Shown in pieces: positions 12,450 through 21,403 of a stretch of DNA of 64,000 nt. Under the pieces are notes generated by a model that searched no databases, was not told the origin of the DNA, and worked only from the letters and a program-made list of their open reading frames with translations. The DNA lies in contig OZ252243.1 of assembly GCA_965249555.1 (NCBI GenBank), positions 928,001 through 992,000 of the forward strand, read 5' to 3'. The stretch is from Nitrosopumilus sp. GTDB taxonomy: Archaea > Thermoproteota > Nitrososphaeria > Nitrososphaerales > Nitrosopumilaceae. Numbering within the stretch: the first letter of the stretch is position 1; the number at the start of each line of letters is the position of its first letter. A program made the translations under genes and the position numbers.

Positions 12450-13704
12450 CTATTCCTGCACCGATTAATCTCCATCTTTCAGAAATTCTTCTACTAATTG
12501 CTACATTTCCACCTTCAAAGATACATGCAGGTCTTCTAAGTTCAATCTCGATATTTTTTGATTTTATTTTGTTAACCTTACCCAATACAGGAGCAGTTCC
12601 AATATTTAGTCGAAGTAGTTCGCCTGATTGGATTGGCTGGACTTTGATATCTTCAGTAATTCCTACTGCAGAATCAAACAGATTCACTTCTAGTTTTAAC
12701 TGAACAGAATTTTCAGGAAGTGTATCAGGTTTTCCAATAACTGAACCGATAAATGAATCACTTCTAGTCATAGAAGGATCTAATTTTGTTCCAATAGCAA
12801 CCAAACCACCAGGCTTTACTGATTCAACAATTCCTGCAGCAGTTCCTAAAGAAGTAATTTCTGTCACTAAAGGTTCATAGGACTTTTTTTTCTCATTCAT
12901 AACACCAGGTTTAATTTCAATTTCATCACCAACATTGAAAACTCCTTGAGTTAGACTTCCTCCAATGACACCTCCCTTGATATTTTTTATTTTTGTACCA
13001 GGTTTGTTTACATCAAAAGAACGCAAAACATGCATTATAGTATCTTTTTTTTCATTTCTTTCTGGTGTTTTGATTGTTGATTCAATAGATCCAATTAATG
13101 CATCAATGTTTAATCCAGATTGTGCAGAAATAGGAATTACAGGTGATTTTGCAGCATGAGTTCCTTTAACAAATTTTGTAATTTCTTGATAGTTTGCTAA
13201 GACTTCTTTGTAAGAAAGTAGATCAACTTTGTTTTGGACTACAACTATTTGTTGAATTCCAAGAGTTTCAAGAGCTAAGAGATGTTCTTTTGTTTGTGGT
13301 TTGGGAACTTTTTCATTTGCAGCAACTAGTAATAATGCACCATCCATCAAGGCAGAACCTGAAAGCATGTTTGCCATCAAACTTTCGTGTCCAGGGCTGT
13401 CAACAAAACTAACAACTCTAGATAATTCACTTTTCTTTCCACAATTGGTACATTTTGGGGTTGTAGAATATCCTAAAGGATCCTCACAACTTTTGCATTT
13501 GTAAAATGCAGCATCAGAGTATCCTACACGAATAGTAATTCCACGTTTTAGTTCCTGACTATGCACACTAGTCCACGAACCAGTTAATGCCTGAATAAGA
13601 GTAGTTTTTCCGTGATCTACATGACCAGCAGTTCCAATGTTAACGCATGGTTGATATCCATATTTTTTGATGTACCAATTAGGAAGTGTGTCTCTCCAAT
13701 GCAT
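12442..13704 (-). CDS. eif2g: translation initiation factor 2 subunit gamma
   Basis: GHVDHGKTT, RGITIRVGY, DSPGHE, QNKVD, RWRLIG. Confidence 0.97.
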   Translation of the reverse strand: MHWRDTLPNWYIKKYGYQPCVNIGTAGHVDHGKTTLIQALTGSWTSVHSQELKRGITIRVGYSDAAFYKCKSCEDPLGYSTTPKCTNCGKKSELSRVVSFVDSPGHESLMANMLSGSALMDGALLLVAANEKVPKPQTKEHLLALETLGIQQIVVVQNKVDLLSYKEVLANYQEITKFVKGTHAAKSPVIPISAQSGLNIDALIGSIESTIKTPERNEKKDTIMHVLRSFDVNKPGTKIKNIKGGVIGGSLTQGVFNVGDEIEIKPGVMNEKKKSYEPLVTEITSLGTAAGIVESVKPGGLVAIGTKLDPSMTRSDSFIGSVIGKPDTLPENSVQLKLEVNLFDSAVGITEDIKVQPIQSGELLRLNIGTAPVLGKVNKIKSKNIEIELRRPACIFEGGNVAISRRISERWRLIGAGIVG

Positions 13705-13735
13705 GAGTCAAAATGTAGAATCGGTATATGTTAAG

Positions 13736-14146
13736 TTATTCTTTTTTATCTTCAGTTTTTTCTTCTGTAGACTCTGCTGCATCTTCAGCAGGTGCTTCAA
13801 CTGGTAATTCTCCATCAAATTTACAATTTACTTGATAGATTTCTTCTGATACTGTATTTCCACGCATTAATTTTCTCACTCTTTGTCCGGTTTCTGCATC
13901 TTGCAAACCTACTCCTTTAGAAAGTAAAACATATTTTCTTGCTGCACCATGAATATCATTTCTCATAGGAACACCAGATTTGTCACTTCCTCCAGTTAGT
14001 TTTAATTTTCCAGCTAGTCCTACAATTGTAGCATCAGTTTCATTTCCTAGTTGTAAACCTAGTAATGGATTTGCATCACTGTCTTTGAGTTCCTTTGATA
14101 CAGACTTTCCCTTGATATCTGAAATTGTAAGTTTGAAGTTGGCCAA
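13736..14146 (-). CDS. rps6e: 30S ribosomal protein S6e
   Basis: LTGGSDKSGVPMR, RVRKLMRGN; likely TTG start (MANFKLTISD). Confidence 0.93.
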   Translation of the reverse strand: MANFKLTISDIKGKSVSKELKDSDANPLLGLQLGNETDATIVGLAGKLKLTGGSDKSGVPMRNDIHGAARKYVLLSKGVGLQDAETGQRVRKLMRGNTVSEEIYQVNCKFDGELPVEAPAEDAAESTEEKTEDKKE

Positions 14147-14220
14147 GTATTCCAAAAAAAAGTTTGACGACTAATTAACCTTTGGACATTATTTTTAAAT
14201 CAAGACTTACAAAGATAGGC

Positions 14221-14343
14221 ATGGGAGAAGACATTAGATGTCCAAAGTGTGATAACAAGATGGTACATATGCAAGCATGTCATATGTTTTGTCCCAACTG
14301 TGGGTCTCATTTAGATTGCTCAGATAAAGGAAACTATTGGTAA
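14221..14343 (+). CDS. small zinc-ribbon protein (40 aa)
   Basis: Hand translation MGEDIRCPKCDNKMVHMQACHMFCPNCGSHLDCSDKGNYW*; two CPxC knuckles; shorter than any ORF in the track. Confidence 0.75.
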   Translation: MGEDIRCPKCDNKMVHMQACHMFCPNCGSHLDCSDKGNYW

Positions 14344-14415
14344 CTATTTTGCCATATAGACAAAAAATTTAGGCTCAATTTTTGATAAAATCTAATGTAA
14401 TTTCCATACAATCAA

Positions 14416-15109
14416 TCAGTTTTGAATTCTTTGAGTAACATCTATGAATTCCATCAAATCTGGCGGTACTGGTTATGTTCTATCCAATGTTGAGAAATAC
14501 ATTGGAATGAATTCTGAACGATTTGTAAATTGTTTATGTCCTTGTAACAGTTCTTTTTTAATATCTTTGAATAGAGAATATTTCTTTGCCAATTTTTTAT
14601 ATGATTTTCCAATTGAAAATAGGACATCTTCATTCAAAAGCATTGTAAATGCAAAATAATTAACTAGAGATTCTGGTTTTACTTTTGGCAAAAATGCAAC
14701 AAATGTAGTCATAAATCCTTGAGATCCTAACATTCTTTCTTCCTGCTCTCTAATTGTCGTAGTAAGATCTACAAAAAAATTCATAGTTAATGTATTCAAC
14801 CAATTAAAAATTAGAAACAAAGAAAATGCTACTATTACAGTAGGGACTAAGATTACAAAAAATATCCATTATTCTAATGGATATAATGAATTATAGCCTA
14901 AGAAAACTGTTACAAAAATTCCAAAAGCTACAAAGATGTAATTTCGCTTATATCCTTAATCTCTGAAGTGACTAATGTTGTAGCATTTTCAAATCTATCT
15001 TGTATACGTTTAACGAATCAATTGCTCCTGTATGATACAGATCAATTCTAGAAATTGCCCATTTCTTATCCTCATCTGTTTTAATTAGATCTAATGAAAT
15101 TTCATCCAT
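14416..15109 (-). pseudogene. decayed membrane-protein gene (includes ORF 14473..14820)
   Basis: ATG at 15109 (MDEISLDLIKTDEDKKWAISRID). Coding-like and hydrophobic segments continue across frameshifts and stops into the 14473..14820 frame and beyond. Confidence 0.5.
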
Positions 15110-15125
15110 GTTATTTATCACTTAA

Positions 15126-15302
15126 TTATTGCCCACAAACTGGACATTGAATATTTTGGTTAGGTTTAGCAGGATGTATTTCATTTTCTGATGGGGAAAA
15201 ATCATGATAGTTTTGACATTCTTTGTTATAAGCTTCTTCAGAAGAATTTGCATGAATTACTTTGAAATGTGAGTGTGGATGCGTGTCTAGTCTCTGTTTT
15301 AG
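15126..15302 (-). pseudogene. 5'-truncated gene fragment (GIY-YIG-like small protein C-terminus) cut by the transposon left end
   Basis: Open frame starts exactly at the TIR edge with no start codon: LKQRLDTHPHSHFKVIHANSSEEAYNKECQNYHDFSPSENEIHPAKPNQNIQCPVCGQ*. Confidence 0.55.
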
Positions 15303-15411
15303 GGTACAGTGAAGTTATAGGGATACAGAAATACGGATCTTCTCTGAATTGAAATTCGTGCCTATTGTGGTTATGAGATATATGAAATCACGATCTTATT
15401 CGAATTCAAAA
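15303..15411 (+). repeat. left terminal inverted repeat (109 bp)
   Basis: GGTACAGTGAAGTTATAGGG...CGAATTCAAAA is the exact reverse complement of 17799-17907. Confidence 0.95.
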
Positions 15412-15429
15412 ATTAACAGGTTTTGAAAT

Positions 15430-15702
15430 TCAGGGCTTTATCTCATCATAACATTTGTCACAAACGTTAATCTGCTTTTCTGTGTCCGGATCTTTTACCC
15501 TCTTGCCCTTCCTAATCTGCTCTTTGCACATTGAGCAGAAATTAAGTCTGTCCTCCGTAACCAATGGCTTTCCATTACATTTCTTGCAAAAATATACGGT
15601 AACAGTTGGGAACTGTGGGATGAATAATCCCAAAGCCCGTTCCTCCAAGTCATAAACGCACCTGCATCTGATACATCTGAACTTGTCTGATACGAACTCC
15701 AT
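15430..15702 (-). CDS. Cys-rich zinc-finger protein (four CxxC motifs), transposon passenger
   Basis: CIRC, CKKC, CSMC, CDKC. Its ATG overlaps the transposase-remnant stop (TAATG). Confidence 0.7.
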   Translation of the reverse strand: MEFVSDKFRCIRCRCVYDLEERALGLFIPQFPTVTVYFCKKCNGKPLVTEDRLNFCSMCKEQIRKGKRVKDPDTEKQINVCDKCYDEIKP

Positions 15703-15898
15703 TATTCATACCCCCTATCCATGGCTGCATTTTGAATAAGTGTCTTCCATTTGTTCTTACCATCAACATTAATCAGGGCTATTTCTGCCCGGGGTCTTTC
15801 CTTTGAGTGAGCCATGCTTTTTGGTGAAATTGTAAGACCCTCATTCCATCTAGTATTGGCGTGTCCATCTTTTTTAGACCTCTAAAGACTTTTTCCCA
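15702..15898 (-). pseudogene. DDE transposase C-terminal remnant
   Basis: With two single-base frameshifts it reads EKVFRGLKKMDTPILDGMRV-YNFTKKHGSLKGKTP-EIALINVDGKNKWKTLIQNAAMDRGYE*, a typical rve/IS6-like tail (YN..H.SL.GKTP). Confidence 0.8.
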
Positions 15899-15997
15899 AG
15901 CTTTATCATTTTGTGTGTTTTATCATTATGTAAAAATAATATTTGAATGATCAGACACTGACATGTATCAAATTCCCGTTAAAATAAAAGTCGCTGA

Positions 15998-17575
15998 TTA
16001 CTGGCCGATATTGACTCGTACGTAGTTGGATCGTTTGCTATCTCCTGCTTCATTAAATGCAACTACTCTGTAGACATATTTGCCATCATCTAATGACTCG
16101 ATAGTAAATGAATCCCTTGGCGAGTCATTACTTAGAGTATAGATATTACATACTGCCAAGTCTTTGGTACCACGCTCTTTACACAAGATGTTGTAACCAT
16201 CTATGGTCGAATCTTGTGGATCAGTCCAGGATAATTCTACTGTATCATTATTAGCAGATGCTTCCAAGTTTTGAGGTTTTGATGGAGGTTCGCTAGTAAT
16301 AGTTGATGATTTAACAGGGTTGGAAGGTACGGGTTCGCCAATAGTTAATAATTTAACAAAATTGGAGCGTGGTGATTCTCCGGACTCGTTAAGGGCAATT
16401 ACGCGAAAGACATAGACAGTATTGGATTTTAAATCATCAACAGTGTAACTGTTACTGACTGTTCCTGTATTTTCAATACAGGTTTTTAGACTGGATTCAG
16501 TTGCAGGGGTTCGGCATAATATCTTGTAGCCTGTAATAGAGTCATCATTAGGATTGTTCCAAGATAATTTTACTGTATTTGCATTTGATGCTACAAATGT
16601 CAAATTACTTGGTTTTGCTGGCGGTGCTAGTGATACTTGATTTCCTGAAGTTCCAAGATCAGAGAGATTGGTAATTGGTATAAACTCAGTAACCGCAGTA
16701 TCTCCACCTGAATATACAGACTTTATAGCTACAGACTTGAATAATTCTTCACCCAAAACAGTTATAGCTAAATCAACTGAAGATTTTGAATCAGGTGAAA
16801 CAACAAGATGATGTTCTATGGTTGTATCATCTGCATATTTTCCTATCAACACATAATTACTGATATCTGTGTTGTATGGACTAGTCCATTCCAGTTCTAG
16901 ACCAATAGTAGTAAAGTCTCTACCTTGTATAGTTTTAGTTTCAGGTACAGTTACTCCCTTTTTCTCAATAGAGTCAACGCTAAAAGCACGAGCAGATAAA
17001 CCACTTAATGCTACAGCAGGACTATTTCCCATAGTTGGTATTACACAGCTGCCAGTGCCGAGACTTAGATTTATCAAGCCTAGTCCCATATAGGATTTAG
17101 GTTGAATCTCTGCTACATTTAATTTCTCTATTGTTATGAGTGCTGCTTCTCCTCTACCTTGATCATTTACTGCTGATATTCTAAAATTCATAGATGGACC
17201 AGAAGTACCAGTAACTAATGCAGTTGATTCACAGATTTTCATATATGGAAATTCAGTGTAAAAATCTGGACTATCATTAGGTGCATAACCTTCTACATTA
17301 TATCTAGTGATATCAACTCTATGGGAATCCCATATTACTCTGTTAATAGAATCATTATATGAAAACTCTATATGATATCCAACGATATCACTGCTGCCAT
17401 TAGACTCTGGAGCATCCCATGTTATTACTTGGATCAATCCAGTTCCTCCACCAATAGGTAGTTCACTAATTGCTTCTAGATTACGTGGTACTGATGGAGG
17501 TTCTGATTGTGCATATGCAGAGGTTAATCCTACCACTAGAACCAGTGATAAAATTACACTTGCTACAACCTTCAT
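15998..17575 (-). CDS. secreted fibronectin type III domain protein
   Basis: Signal peptide ending AYAQ and three Fn3 repeats (PPSVPRNL..ITWDAP..FRISAVN; PAKPSNL..LSW..YVFRVIALN; PSKPQNL..LSW..YRVVAFNEAG). Confidence 0.9.
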   Translation of the reverse strand: MKVVASVILSLVLVVGLTSAYAQSEPPSVPRNLEAISELPIGGGTGLIQVITWDAPESNGSSDIVGYHIEFSYNDSINRVIWDSHRVDITRYNVEGYAPNDSPDFYTEFPYMKICESTALVTGTSGPSMNFRISAVNDQGRGEAALITIEKLNVAEIQPKSYMGLGLINLSLGTGSCVIPTMGNSPAVALSGLSARAFSVDSIEKKGVTVPETKTIQGRDFTTIGLELEWTSPYNTDISNYVLIGKYADDTTIEHHLVVSPDSKSSVDLAITVLGEELFKSVAIKSVYSGGDTAVTEFIPITNLSDLGTSGNQVSLAPPAKPSNLTFVASNANTVKLSWNNPNDDSITGYKILCRTPATESSLKTCIENTGTVSNSYTVDDLKSNTVYVFRVIALNESGESPRSNFVKLLTIGEPVPSNPVKSSTITSEPPSKPQNLEASANNDTVELSWTDPQDSTIDGYNILCKERGTKDLAVCNIYTLSNDSPRDSFTIESLDDGKYVYRVVAFNEAGDSKRSNYVRVNIGQ

Positions 17576-17798
17576 ACAATATCCAAATACAGTAATGTAT
17601 AAGAGTATTTAGATCAATCATAGTGATCTAGCATATCTAGTGTTCAAAAGTTGACAAATATGGATTCTTATCTGGATTACCTTAACCACTTTACTGCTTT
17701 TTCATATTCTGGTATCTCCATTACTTAATTCATACAAAACTGAATTCTGTTGAGTTAAGATATTAAATCGATCTCATCTGAATTTAGAAATTAGTTGA

Positions 17799-17907
17799 TT
17801 TTGAATTCGAATAAGATCGTGATTTCATATATCTCATAACCACAATAGGCACGAATTTCAATTCAGAGAAGATCCGTATTTCTGTATCCCTATAACTTCA
17901 CTGTACC
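17799..17907 (-). repeat. right terminal inverted repeat (109 bp)
   Basis: Exact reverse complement of 15303-15411. Confidence 0.95.
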
Positions 17908-17917
17908 TTATTGGTAA

Positions 17918-18091
17918 TTACAATCCAGATCTATCTGGAATATAGTCTGATGCCATATTGATTGCATTATCTTTCATGATTTCAAGATAGGTATCATAAT
18001 CTGCTTCAAAGTTACAGTGAGGACATTTAACTTTCGTAATTTCATCATCTAAAATTGCAACTTTTTCACACTCTGGGCACCTTGCATCCAT
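17918..18091 (-). CDS. small zinc-ribbon protein (57 aa)
   Basis: Hand translation MDARCPECEKVAILDDEITKVKCPHCNFEADYDTYLEIMKDNAINMASDYIPDRSGL*; not in the ORF track. Confidence 0.8.
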   Translation of the reverse strand: MDARCPECEKVAILDDEITKVKCPHCNFEADYDTYLEIMKDNAINMASDYIPDRSGL

Positions 18092-18145
18092 ATCTTAGTT
18101 TCACAATCAAGATATTTAATCATGATTATCAAATATGTCCTAAGT

Positions 18146-18185
18146 GGAGTTAGTTTAGTCTGGTATAACGTCAGCTTCCCAAGCT
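18146..18185 (+). repeat. att site: copy of the tRNA-Gly 5' half through the anticodon loop
   Basis: GGAGTTAGTTTAGTCTGGTATAACGTCAGCTTCCCAAGCT is identical to 21332-21371. Confidence 0.95.
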
Positions 18186-18366
18186 CGGTGCCTACGGCGC
18201 AAGACACCTTCGGTGATAAATTGATGAGAGGTAATTCTTTTTCATAAAACATTTTTAGTTTTTTTATTGAAAATATAATTTTATACTCATAATTTTTGTT
18301 AGGATTAAAGTTTCTTGAGAGGAATTCTCGTTTTTTCTTACTAAACATAATCATATCAGTAAACAA
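18146..18366 (-). pseudogene. putative N-terminal part of an att-split integrase (part of ORF 18049..18366)
   Basis: The frame reads through the att repeat. In the reconstituted circular form it stays open for about 54 further codons, down to 21169. Confidence 0.4.
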
Positions 18367-18423
18367 CTAGATCTTAAAAATATTTATTCCCATATCACTT
18401 ACTTTTTAACCTAAAGAAAAAAA

Positions 18424-18711
18424 ATGAATATGTTGCAGAAGTTAAAAACTAATCTTTTACCTGAAATTAAAATACAAAATACTGTTTGTACTGCAGATCT
18501 TAACCAGAAAATAAACATTGCAGAATTTAACAGATATTATTTTTTGAGCTGCAATCTAGATCTGTATAGATGTGGGTATGTAAAGGATGATTCCATGATA
18601 GGAAGAACCACTGTGTTTGCAAATGGAAAATTAATTTCAGTTGGAACAAAAAGCCAAAAAGAAGCCATTAAGAAATTAAAAAAACTTGTAACAATAGTTA
18701 CACAGAAATAA
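18424..18711 (+). CDS. single-repeat TATA-binding-protein-like protein
   Basis: IKIQNTVCTADLNQKINI...RTTVFANGKLISVGTKS..EAIKKL matches one TBP repeat (IENIVA..DL...LIFSSGKMVITGAKS). Confidence 0.7.
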   Translation: MNMLQKLKTNLLPEIKIQNTVCTADLNQKINIAEFNRYYFLSCNLDLYRCGYVKDDSMIGRTTVFANGKLISVGTKSQKEAIKKLKKLVTIVTQK

Positions 18712-19988
18712 TTCTAATTCCTTCCCAGAGTCTTATTATTTTTCCTTCTATTCTCCCTATTGTTGATTCAATACCAAACTTTTGGGAAACTTTGTAATTG
18801 AAAGCTTTTTCTTTTTTTGGAGTGATTTTATTTTTCTTACACCACTTGCAAAATACCTGAAAGATGGAGACCTTGGAAGTTTGTCTCAAAATCCTGCTCA
18901 ACACAAGAATCCAAAAATGTGTCTATCGGATTGGCTTTTTGTGTCCAAATTTCTTGTAATTTTGAGGTATTTTCATCATATGTCAATTTTCCATTTTTCT
19001 TTATTTTTTGAATATATAGAAGAAGTAAATTTAGAATTCCTGAAAGTTTATGTTCTGTTGTTAATTCGTTGAAAAGATTTTGATTAATTTTGTATTTTTT
19101 ATTCTGATGAGTAAATTGTTGATTCCATTCAATCAAAACTAATCTTCGATAAACTGCATGTGAGTTTTCACCAAGTTCAGGTAATTCATTACATGAAAAG
19201 ATCGACTTTGCAGTGTTTCTCATCTTAAATCTATGTTGATTTTTCCTTTGAACTTCTATGGAGTCACTACTGATGATTGCTTTGATGGTGCCAAGTTCAG
19301 GAATTTCTCTTCTTGAAATATCTGCATAGATGTTTGCAAGTTTACTATCTAATCCAGCTTTTGCAAATCGATCTGATTCCATATCATGAATTGAGATATT
19401 AGAAACATTTTCTGAGCCTAAAAATCGTTCCATAACATTCAAGCAGGTACTTTTTCCATTAGCACCAGATCCTACATTCATGAACATTTTTTCTAGATGG
19501 ATATTTGGGAGTAATATAGAGGCAAACGCTTCTAATGCAGATATCTTATTTTTCTCCTCAGGAAGGCATTGATCTAAAAACCTCTGGAATTGTTCACATA
19601 TAGCATTTTGATCATATGTTACTGGTAGCTGAATTCTGAAAAGGAAGTTTGAAGAATGTGGTTGAAGTTGTTCTGTCTTTAAATTAAGAATTCCATTTCT
19701 TAGATTTATCAAGTTTTCATAACTATCAAATTCTTGATCTCGTGAAACATGTGTTTCTCGTCTAATAGTATTGATCACTTCTTTGCAATTGTGAGTTTTA
19801 CAGTCTGGAATTATTTTTTGGCATTCTTCTTTAATTATGATTTCTCCTCCACTTTTGTAGATACCATCTTCATAGACTAGAACTTGTTCAGAATCCCTTA
19901 AGGTCTTGAAATGAAAGGAGTTTCGGATAATGTCTGCATAATGACCATTTCCATACCTAATTTCACTCATTTTTAACTCAATTTCCAT
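18698..19988 (-). pseudogene. phage/plasmid D5 (P4-family) SF3 helicase, frameshifted near 18880
   Basis: D5_N region (LINLRNGILNL..PHS), Walker A GSGANGKST, SCNELP, RRLVLIEW. The C-terminal winged helix (SKVSIFQVFCKWCKKNKITP) lies in frame 18698..18904. Confidence 0.85.
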
Positions 19989-20200
19989 TGTGCTTCAATA
20001 ATTTCATTATTGCGATTATTGAAAGATATTTCCAATGCCCTGAACATGTCGTTTGAATTGTTATTTGTTGTTAGCATGATCTTTTCTATGGGAAAATCCA
20101 GATCTAAATACCTTTGTAGTAATTTTCTCAAAAAATATTTTTTCGGTTTGACTATAGAAATTGCAATTTGATTTTCTTTATGTTAAATTTTTTAAAATTA

Positions 20201-20746
20201 TTATTTTAACTCTGGGAATATGTCTGCATACATTAGTTTGAATTTGTCTTTTCTTTTTATTTCGGCAATTTGGTACTGATATTTTTTATAAAAATTAACT
20301 GCATCTTTAGTAAATAATACAATATATCTACATCCTACTTTGTCTGAGATAATTCGTGCTAATCCATTACACCATAATAATACATATTCTCCAAAACCTT
20401 TTCCTCTAAATTTTTTGTCAATACAAAAATCAAGAATTACTAATGCAGGATATAGATTGCCGTCACGAGTGGCAGGTCTCTTTTTTTTAATTATTTTATC
20501 TTTGTGAATATTAGATGTAGCTACTGTAACATAACCAATAGAATTTTTCTTGTAAGTTATGATGTAAGTAGTACCAAGATGTGCAGTTTGATTTTTTAAT
20601 GCTCTTTTATCAATAAAATATTGTAAGCATTGAGTGTCTTCACCTAATTCATTGGTACAATCAAAATGAGGTTTATGACTAGATTTTAATTTTGGAAAGC
20701 CAAATGCATCTTCGTCAATTTGAAATTTAGTTGAAGAACTAGCCAT
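20201..20746 (-). CDS. GNAT acetyltransferase, TacT/AtaT-like toxin
   Basis: FDC..LQYF, GYVTV, YPALVI..CIDKKFRGKGFGEY, VGCRYIVL, AVNFYKKY. Confidence 0.8.
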   Translation of the reverse strand: MASSSTKFQIDEDAFGFPKLKSSHKPHFDCTNELGEDTQCLQYFIDKRALKNQTAHLGTTYIITYKKNSIGYVTVATSNIHKDKIIKKKRPATRDGNLYPALVILDFCIDKKFRGKGFGEYVLLWCNGLARIISDKVGCRYIVLFTKDAVNFYKKYQYQIAEIKRKDKFKLMYADIFPELK

Positions 20747-20774
20747 AAAAATTATGAATGTGTGTAGGTAATTA

Positions 20775-20936
20775 TTACTTACTTTTTGGTGCTTGTCTTG
20801 GTTGACAGTGTTTGAGATAAAACTTCTCAGATTTTTTAAAATAAGCTATCTCTTCTGGTGTTGCTTGTCTTTTCTGATATTTTTCAAATGCTTTTGCATT
20901 CTTGCCTGTAAGTACAATTGGTTCATTTGGATTCAT
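20775..20936 (-). CDS. small putative antitoxin (53 aa) upstream of the GNAT
   Basis: Hand translation MNPNEPIVLTGKNAKAFEKYQKRQATPEEIAYFKKSEKFYLKHCQPRQAPKSK*; ends 28 bp before the GNAT ATG. Confidence 0.6.
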   Translation of the reverse strand: MNPNEPIVLTGKNAKAFEKYQKRQATPEEIAYFKKSEKFYLKHCQPRQAPKSK

Positions 20937-21168
20937 TATGTCATATACTCCTGTATAGAACGATTTTCTGATGTCATTATTAAATTAAGCATCTGATTTT
21001 CTCCTAGATTTTTTATAGATCCTTCTAGAGATAAGGTAGAATCTGTATTAGTTGAGCATAGACAGTTTTGCAGCATAAAATAGGCATAATCTGATTCCAT
21101 CATTTGATATTTCACAGTAAGGAGATCTAAGAAACAGGGACTGATATAATTGACATTATTGATAAATA

Positions 21169-21331
21169 TCATCTTGCATATCTTGCATTTTTGTTAGAGT
21201 ATAACCAGTTCTTGTATGCCGGATCGGCAGACAAACCTTGGAGGGCCTTACTAAAAACAGTAAGATCCATCTTACTGAATTCAGTAAGAGGAAAATTGTT
21301 TTTAGAGGGCTGACCGAAGGTCTGCGCAGGC
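21169..21331 (-). pseudogene. putative degraded C-terminal part of the split integrase
   Basis: In-frame continuation of the 18366 frame across att: PAQTFGQPSKNNFPLTEFSKMDLTVFSKALQGLSADPAYKNWLYSNKNARYAR*. Confidence 0.35.
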
Positions 21332-21403
21332 GGAGTTAGTTTAGTCTGGTATAACGTCAGCTTCCCAAGCTGAAGGCCGCGGGTTCAAATCCCGCACTCC
21401 GCA
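21330..21403 (+). tRNA. tRNA-Gly(CCC)
   Basis: Acceptor GCGGAGT/ACTCCGC, anticodon arm TCAGC-TTCCCAA-GCTGA, T arm GCGGG-TTCAAAT-CCCGC. No intron; CCA not encoded. Confidence 0.97.

Follow-up and report, generated by a model that had tools for sequence, protein, structure and literature searches.

Insertion sequences (IS) that belong to the IS6 family have, according to the parts of a 2021 review drawn on here, inverted repeats (IRs) of 15–20 bp and typical lengths of 700–890 bp, and their archaeal representatives are placed in the Euryarchaeota and Crenarchaeota (PMC7986276). The same parts list one passenger-carrying member (tIS), ISDsp3, and describe the pseudo-compound transposons of IS26 as built from directly repeated IS copies (PMC7986276). 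For the Thaumarchaeota, cryptic integrated elements were described by Krupovic et al. in 2019; the portion of that article used here gives one or two genes as typical of thaumarchaeal IS-like transposons and states that transposons with passenger genes were undetected in archaea (PMC6563490). The present report concerns a 2605-bp segment of a Nitrosopumilus genome, bounded by perfect inverted repeats of 109 bp (the arms), that encloses the remnant of an IS6-type transposase and an open gene for a secreted-looking protein with fibronectin type III (Fn3) domains. The segment occupies positions 15303–17907 of the window, i.e. the whole 64,000-nt stretch analyzed, to which all unlabeled coordinates refer and which corresponds to G000:C1:928001-992000; the source genome, G000, is a single contig of 2.23 Mb.

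An earlier note made from the letters of this window had taken the segment for a transposon with cargo that was recently mobilized in trans. Comparison with related genomes gives a different picture. On balance, and with some reserve, the 2605-bp unit is regarded here as a decayed, non-autonomous relic of passenger-carrying IS6-family elements, lying at the right edge of the 3.56-kb remnant of an integrated island.

The unit resembles the IS6/IS26 family in its DDE_Tnp_IS240-type transposase remnant, in ends with GG tips and a TGT-type motif, in the occurrence of derivatives that are miniature inverted-repeat transposable elements (MITEs), and in junctions without target repeats, as intramolecular deletion leaves them. 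It departs from the family as outlined in the cited parts of the review (IRs of 15–20 bp, lengths of ∼0.7–1.8 kb) in its size and in arms that are both long and bipartite, and intact relatives in the genus, at 2.3–2.7 kb with perfect terminal inverted repeats (TIRs) of 54–57 bp, depart from that norm as well. The host is different, too: an AT-rich archaeon with a seemingly thaumarchaeal gene content. Like ISDsp3, which is known here from a one-sentence description, the unit has a non-transposase gene between IS6-family ends; set against that description, it differs in having a dead transposase and a mosaic passenger region. Compound transposons of the Tn10/Tn5 type and IS26 pseudo-compound transposons likewise have IS-derived ends around unrelated genes, but neither flank of the unit is a complete IS: the left consists of an end, a small cysteine-rich open reading frame (ORF) and a transposase tail remnant, and the right of a MITE-like piece of ∼300 bp. 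Moreover, the arms are inverted, unlike the direct copies described for the pseudo-compound transposons.

The inserted block and its attachment site

Relatives of the locus were sought in 30 genomes and were found in 16 of 18 from the same genus and in none of 12 outside it. In 13 of the 18 congeners, the sequence equivalent to position 14346 abuts or overlaps that equivalent to position 17908, and G150 is likewise empty at this site. The empty-site joint reads ...GGAAA TTATTGGTAA(C/T)TA CAATCC..., and the same joint (14333 to 17908) is made by a public-run contig from a relative that is ∼91% identical. Given that 14346 and 17908 are directly joined in relatives, the inserted block is 14347–17907 (3561 bp). 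On the right the block ends with the tip of the right arm, and on the left it begins 956 bp before the left arm. The empty-site check proposed in the earlier note thus did yield an empty site, but for this larger block, which shares only its right border with the arm-bounded unit; the claim that the unit itself was recently mobilized is not supported by this result.

The block is flanked by an imperfect 13-bp direct repeat. Its left copy, CTATTGGTAACTA (14334–14346), overlaps the last codons and the stop of a conserved 53-aa zinc-ribbon gene (14182–14343), and its right copy, TTATTGGTAATTA (17908–17920), overlaps the stop of a conserved 57-aa zinc-ribbon gene (17918–18091). In two congeners, the same site is occupied by larger inserts, of 16.5 kb in G154 and 9 kb in G155, which are flanked by a 20–21-bp direct repeat, AAGGAAA(C/T)TATTGGTAA(C/T)TA. 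The 7 bp AAGGAAA that precede the right repeat in both of these genomes are replaced in the window by the tip of the arm. By Pfam, the G154 island (G154:C5:245500-263500) encodes a Phage_integrase (PF00589), a protein with a Shedu SduA_C domain, a helicase, an HFX_2341-like protein and two DDE transposases; that of G155 encodes transposases and has a 1574-aa ORF. The combination of direct repeat, empty sites and occupied relatives therefore identifies the convergent 3′ ends of the two zinc-ribbon genes as an attachment (att) site for integrase-type islands.

Between the left att repeat and the left arm lies a relic of the left end of such an island (14347–15302). Its first ∼31 bp are common to the G154 and G155 islands, the stretch 14365–14660 is 87% like a relic in G150, and the whole is unique within G000. 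At the level of sequence, block 14347–17907 is thus best described as the remnant of an integrase-type island, with att repeats at its borders and empty sites in relatives; no integrase was found among the ORFs scanned in or beside it. It resembles the thaumarchaeal cryptic integrated elements, as the cited portion of that article presents them, in being placed at an att site that coincides with the 3′ end of protein genes, in its direct repeats and empty sites, and in having a full-size relative, that of G154, with an integrase; it is unlike them in that only a left-end relic survives in the window, with no integrase (PMC6563490).

Several observations concern this island family more widely. 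The 16.5-kb insert of G154 resembles a defense island; by eye, a putative methylase-like ORF stands there beside a small ORF taken for a Vsr-type endonuclease. The att core together with island left-end sequence also occurs at other loci in congeners (G007:C1:710244-710320; L069 2017–2060, in G066:C85), with a helicase and small island genes as neighbors. The family thus does not seem to be confined to a single site. The helicase beside the att-like sequence in G007 has no counterpart inside the block. An insertion of 2.6 kb near the att site in G002 carries rve-type transposases and is unrelated to the arms.

The arm tips as breakpoints

Both tips of the arm-bounded unit coincide with a break in the surrounding sequence. 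On the left, the 3′ fragment of a gene, here called gene X (15129–15302, minus strand; 58 aa, without a start codon), is severed exactly at the tip of the arm. The fragment corresponds to the C-terminal half of proteins of 119 aa in G146 and 155 aa in G066, these being the sizes between which full gene X ranges in congeners, and the G066 copy adjoins the same island-end sequence. In blastn, the nucleotide homology to G146 ends exactly at 15302, and the missing N-terminal ∼51 aa, i.e. the 5′ half of the gene, were found nowhere in G000. A suspected GIY-YIG nuclease identity of gene X received no support from Pfam or NCBIfam.

Given the cut in gene X at the left tip and the loss of AAGGAAA at the right, both tips are joined to DNA that was not originally adjacent to them. 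Neither direct nor inverted 8-bp target copies are present at the tips, where the flanks read tgttttag and ttattggt, in line with what had been noted before. Such junctions without target duplication fit an IS6-type insertion with a subsequent adjacent deletion.

Structure of the inverted arms

A repeat search of the window returned inverted arms at 15300–15411 and 17799–17910 (112 nt, 99%), within which the core 15303–15411 is complementary to 17799–17907 at 109 of 109 positions, exactly as the earlier note had stated. In blastn, the similarity extends to 134 bp at 94%. The runner-up inverted repeat within 13000–20500 spans merely 27 nt at 74%, and the arm pair is therefore far beyond chance. 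Practically no credence can be given to misassembly as the source of the pair, the objection that the note itself had anticipated: contigs of public runs from three studies reproduce all four arm junctions. These contigs end at 15332/15382 and 17828/17878, because a perfect repeat with such borders must split 31-mer unitigs there, and a 1784-bp contig from the third study crosses the entire right arm (16276–18059) with 0 differences. Together, the predicted breaks and the spanning contig establish, within what contigs can reveal, that the arm pair is not an assembly artifact.

Each arm starts with GGTACAGTGAAG, in which a GG tip is followed by a TGT-type motif, and is composed of two tandem TIR-like modules, an outer one at arm positions 1–57 and an inner one at 58–∼110. 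For the left arm (15303–15411), these correspond to ∼15303–15359 and ∼15360–15415; the right arm (17799–17907) is its perfect reverse complement. Alignment of outer with inner module gave a local score of 19, which was reached by 0 of 2000 shuffles (shuffle mean 7.9). The arms are matched bipartite termini, consisting of an outer family TIR of ∼57 bp and an inner TIR-like module. A model in which one element is nested inside a minimal two-TIR element was considered and rejected, since the inverted repeat would not be perfect with a target repeat lying between the modules. The Tc1/mariner transposons with IR/DR ends, of which Sleeping Beauty is an example, have long inverted ends with two similar tandem modules each. 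The likeness of the arms to these ends is structural only, and the transposase belongs to another superfamily branch.

A surface-protein-like gene bracketed by perfect inverted repeats also calls to mind a programmed invertible segment, in which phase variation would flip the gene between the 109-bp repeats. This explanation is highly improbable: no recombinase family was seen among 10 neighboring ORFs scanned, the gene lies within the segment together with 220 bp of upstream sequence, so that a flip would uncouple no promoter, and the repeats are, by homology, transposon ends. Homologous recombination between the arms can nonetheless invert the unit today, and the orientation of the interior is not readable from public contigs, which break inside the arms.

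Composition of the interior

The interior of the unit lies wholly on the minus strand. At 15702–15895 it contains the C-terminal remnant of an IS6-family (DDE_Tnp_IS240) transposase, cut ∼7 codons before its native stop. In tblastn, the pieces fall in three frames (15895–15836, 15834–15793 and 15800–15714) and amount to ∼63 aa, all that is left of an IS6-type coding sequence, with weak transposase similarity running on to ∼15951. The frameshifted DDE transposase tail that had been noted from the sequence alone is thereby borne out, and its full-length relatives in G000 and congeners match Pfam DDE_Tnp_IS240 (PF13610). By eye, the N termini of these relatives contain cysteine-rich motifs. The copies in G000 all look partial or interrupted, the best being a 394-aa ORF (231313–232497) that lacks the last ∼30 aa; no intact cognate transposase was seen in this genome, and a search for TIRs at four of its degraded IS6 copies gave nothing above chance. 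Since its transposase is dead, the unit is non-autonomous, as the earlier note had held.

Directly adjoining the tail is an ORF with four CxxC motifs (15430–15702, minus strand; 90 aa), here called the Zn ORF, which lies ∼100–130 bp inside the IS6-type tip and reads toward it. It is unique within G000 and has no Pfam or NCBIfam family, and a large protein search gave no candidate. Two homologues in G157 are placed in the same way relative to an IS6-type tip, and at both loci the inner arm module aligns with a terminal TIR ∼95–110 bp from the homologue. A solo arm relic in G000 (1815499–1815651; 81% over 155 bp) retains both modules and the last seven codons of the Zn ORF. Given this placement beside an IS6 tip in G157 and in the 1.815-Mb relic, the Zn ORF is a passenger or accessory gene of an IS6 lineage, and the inner module of the left arm is the native end of that lineage.

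The stop of the transposase tail overlaps the ATG of the Zn ORF (TAATG), an overlap that the earlier note had read as coupling of the two genes. At one of the G157 loci, however, the tail reads away from the Zn-ORF end, whereas in the window it reads toward it. This opposite orientation, taken with the cut in the tail, implies that the overlap is a rearrangement joint and not the mark of an operon; the overlap stands, the coupling does not. A separate arrangement in G157:C1 (L057 ∼1408–1815) is a MITE-like piece of ∼410 bp between two IS6-type tips, the right one judged by eye, in which a truncated Zn-ORF homologue stands back to back with a transposase tail.

The Fn3 gene (15998–17575, minus strand) is open, as noted earlier, and encodes a 525-aa, secreted-looking protein with a hydrophobic leader at its start and a Pfam fn3 match at 2e-35. 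Its N-terminal 320 aa have no close relative in 150 congener genomes (4 weak matches). The 3′ third of the gene and the upstream half of the transposase remnant form a 781-bp segment (15793–16573) that is 96% identical to G000 2028564–2029346. At that locus (G000:C1:2026000-2030000) the segment follows an 871-aa Fn3 paralogue, no arms are present, and the remnant is severed, at the equivalent of 15793, by a sequence of ∼270 bp. Of the two forms of the Fn3-tail junction, the longer and older is therefore the one in the window. The ∼270-bp cutting sequence recurs in many congeners at 72–85%, often twice per genome, and may represent another mobile module, encoding a 92-aa ORF.

The right-hand 302 bp of the unit (17606–17907) are a diverged relative of a ∼265-bp IS6-derived MITE family that has ∼16 copies in G000, mostly 88–98% identical. 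The outer 109 bp of this MITE-like element are the right arm; the element has a degenerate inner (left) tip and shows no target repeat at its ends. The whole 2.6-kb unit does not itself have the properties of a MITE, which is small, has no ORF and retains both IS ends. Taken together, the sequence comparisons indicate that the interior was patched together from the Fn3 gene and at least three IS6-related pieces.

The MITE family of G000 is also the site of another association. An IS110-family element of ∼1.3 kb (PF01548; at least 15 copies or fragments in G000) sits at one fixed MITE position in at least 5 of 16 copies examined; the loci concerned include G000:C1 2098008–2098572, 538353–538882, 1797071–1798279 and 85000–88500. 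The pattern suggests that one mobile element targets the other in a sequence-specific way. An IS110-family element is also abutted by a second solo arm relic, at G000 1556727–1556796 (88–90% over ∼70 bp).

The composition of the interior bears on whether the arms ever belonged to one element. Alternatively, the Fn3 gene might be bracketed by chance by an IS6 copy truncated to arm and Zn ORF and, in opposite orientation, by a MITE that inserted independently; gene conversion would later have made the two identical over 109 bp. The right arm does terminate a MITE-like element of ∼300 bp with its own inner TIR-like end, identity drops from 100% to ∼70% immediately inward of the arms, in the manner of a conversion-tract boundary, and the two solo relics show that arms occur singly. 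Such an origin is nevertheless doubtful, because the 5′ half of gene X could have disappeared from between the pieces only through several extra deletions, a conversion tract would not be expected to stop exactly at the two element tips, and the MITE-like piece, too, lacks a flanking 8-bp repeat.

Relatives and copies of the arms

Intact IS6 elements of congeners have perfect TIRs that the arms resemble at 80–84%, and the arms align with those of G059 and G151. The G059 element (G059:C22:11587-13846) is intact, with 2260 bp, a perfect 57-bp TIR, a 390-aa transposase and a target repeat matching at 7 of 8 positions; it includes ∼1 kb of extra DNA with small ORFs that have no Pfam family. The G151 element (G151:C1:786717-789463) measures 2747 bp, has a perfect 54-bp TIR and no target repeat, and holds, next to a split transposase, a restriction-modification pair of a MunI-type restriction endonuclease with an MT-A70 methylase. 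In this clade, it is therefore normal for TIRs to be long and perfect and for elements to include passenger DNA. These alignments, together with the GG tip, support the assignment of the ends of the unit to the IS6 family, as proposed in the earlier note, although they weaken its premise that a long perfect TIR is anomalous in itself. Its idea of a cargo vehicle fits the intact relatives, in which passengers lie between long perfect TIRs, and is not supported for the unit at hand.

Within G000, the full arm occurs twice, as the left and right arm of the unit, and the unit is single-copy. The genome search suggested in the note thus recovered, beyond these, the two solo relics, but no further full arm and no intact transposase. 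No full arm was present in any of the 150 congeners searched. A query consisting of arm plus Zn ORF matched 12 of these genomes, 11 of them through the outer 55–65 bp of the arm, which are 80–86% like congener TIR regions (shorter pieces up to 100%); the remaining match, in G157, covered only the Zn ORF. In this comparison, no genome but G000 had the inner part of the arm. Exact-pattern scans of metagenomes with two arm patterns gave 0 matches each, and a joint of 15302 to 17908 was absent from all public-run contigs examined. Neither a second copy nor presence and absence of exactly 15303–17907 was thus observed. Mobility of 15303–17907 as one unit is not shown: it exists as one copy without a target repeat, no full arm came up in the 150 congeners and the two exact-pattern metagenome scans gave no matches.

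These results weigh on the proposal that 15303–17907 is a single non-autonomous cargo transposon that was recently moved in trans into gene X by an IS6 transposase, its target repeat being lost by a later deletion at the right end. Several features would accord with it: each tip coincides exactly with a breakpoint, the arms match perfectly, 2605 bp falls within the size range of the intact passenger-carrying relatives, and the ∼16 related MITE copies in G000 imply that trans-mobilization occurred in this lineage. The absence of copies, full arms, target repeat, empty joint and intact cognate transposase just described, the patchwork interior, and the presence of the Fn3-tail junction at an armless locus as well make it unlikely.

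A broader form of this proposal holds that the 109-bp bipartite ends, with two tandem modules per arm that resemble transposase sites, define an undescribed IS6 subgroup of passenger-carrying transposons in the genus, movable in trans once their own transposase is lost and shuttling surface-protein, zinc-ribbon and restriction-modification genes, and that the present copy was recently active and carved the adjoining island. This is a speculative extension and is considered quite unlikely.

A second island in the window

A separate island lies at 18146–21371, between copies of a perfect 40-bp direct repeat (18146–18185 = 21332–21371) that corresponds to the 5′ part of tRNA-Gly(CCC) (21330–21403). 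The ∼3.2 kb between the repeats contain a TBP-like ORF, a D5_N/DUF5906 primase-helicase and a GNAT ORF, for which a small adjacent ORF is a possible antitoxin partner. The ORFs scanned included no integrase.

Discussion

The history proposed for the relic has four steps. An island first integrated at the att site of the two convergent zinc-ribbon genes, as comparison with empty and occupied relatives shows. An IS6-type end was then joined into island gene X; the breakpoint is seen in the sequence, and insertion would be the likely mechanism. Subsequently, an IS6-type intramolecular (adjacent) deletion would have joined the other IS6 tip to the att core. A deletion reaching from the right tip to the att core would explain why gene X lacks its 5′ half and why the integrase and the remainder of the island are gone, and would leave no target duplication. 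Finally, the interior was presumably scrambled, its pieces being recognizable and their order of arrival conjectural: the module of end plus Zn ORF, from one IS6 lineage, now abuts a transposase tail that would have come in together with the Fn3 gene, and a MITE-like derivative forms the right end. IS6 activity thus probably trimmed the island remnant.

The arms add a relative date. Given the 4% divergence of the 781-bp tract shared with the 2.029-Mb locus, ∼4 differences would be expected per 109 bp if the arms were of the same age, and 0 are seen. The identity of the arms is younger than the decay of the transposase, and most likely arose by copying of one composite end or by gene conversion. 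Apart from inversion through the arms, all that the unit could still do today is serve as a substrate for a cognate IS6 transposase supplied in trans.

A number of points weigh against this history. The adjacent deletion is deduced from the junctions alone, no intermediate state having been found, and the two arms may never have belonged to one element: a MITE-like unit, too, ends in the right arm, and the orientation of the transposase tail is wrong for the Zn-ORF lineage. As a source of the perfect 109 bp, ordinary gene conversion is awkward, since it should not stop exactly at the tip of an element. If the att repeat of the island was only 13 bp, the right tip would stand exactly at the island border, which the deletion does not predict. 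The 394-aa IS6 ORF of G000, which lacks only its last ∼30 aa, may still provide some transposase activity in this genome.

For the reading of such loci in general, the comparison carries two lessons. Perfect long inverted repeats around a dead transposase are no proof of recent movement, and it was the comparison with empty sites that revealed an insertion unit different from the one bounded by the arms. For the family, the archaeal IS6 clade seen here departs from the general description in its perfect TIRs of 54–57 bp (109 bp at this locus), its lengths of 2.3–2.7 kb and its passenger DNA, and, if such elements are active, they would offer a route for the exchange of surface-protein and defense genes in the genus. 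The locus also illustrates in detail how an integrated island can be worn away by IS6 activity until a single att repeat is left.

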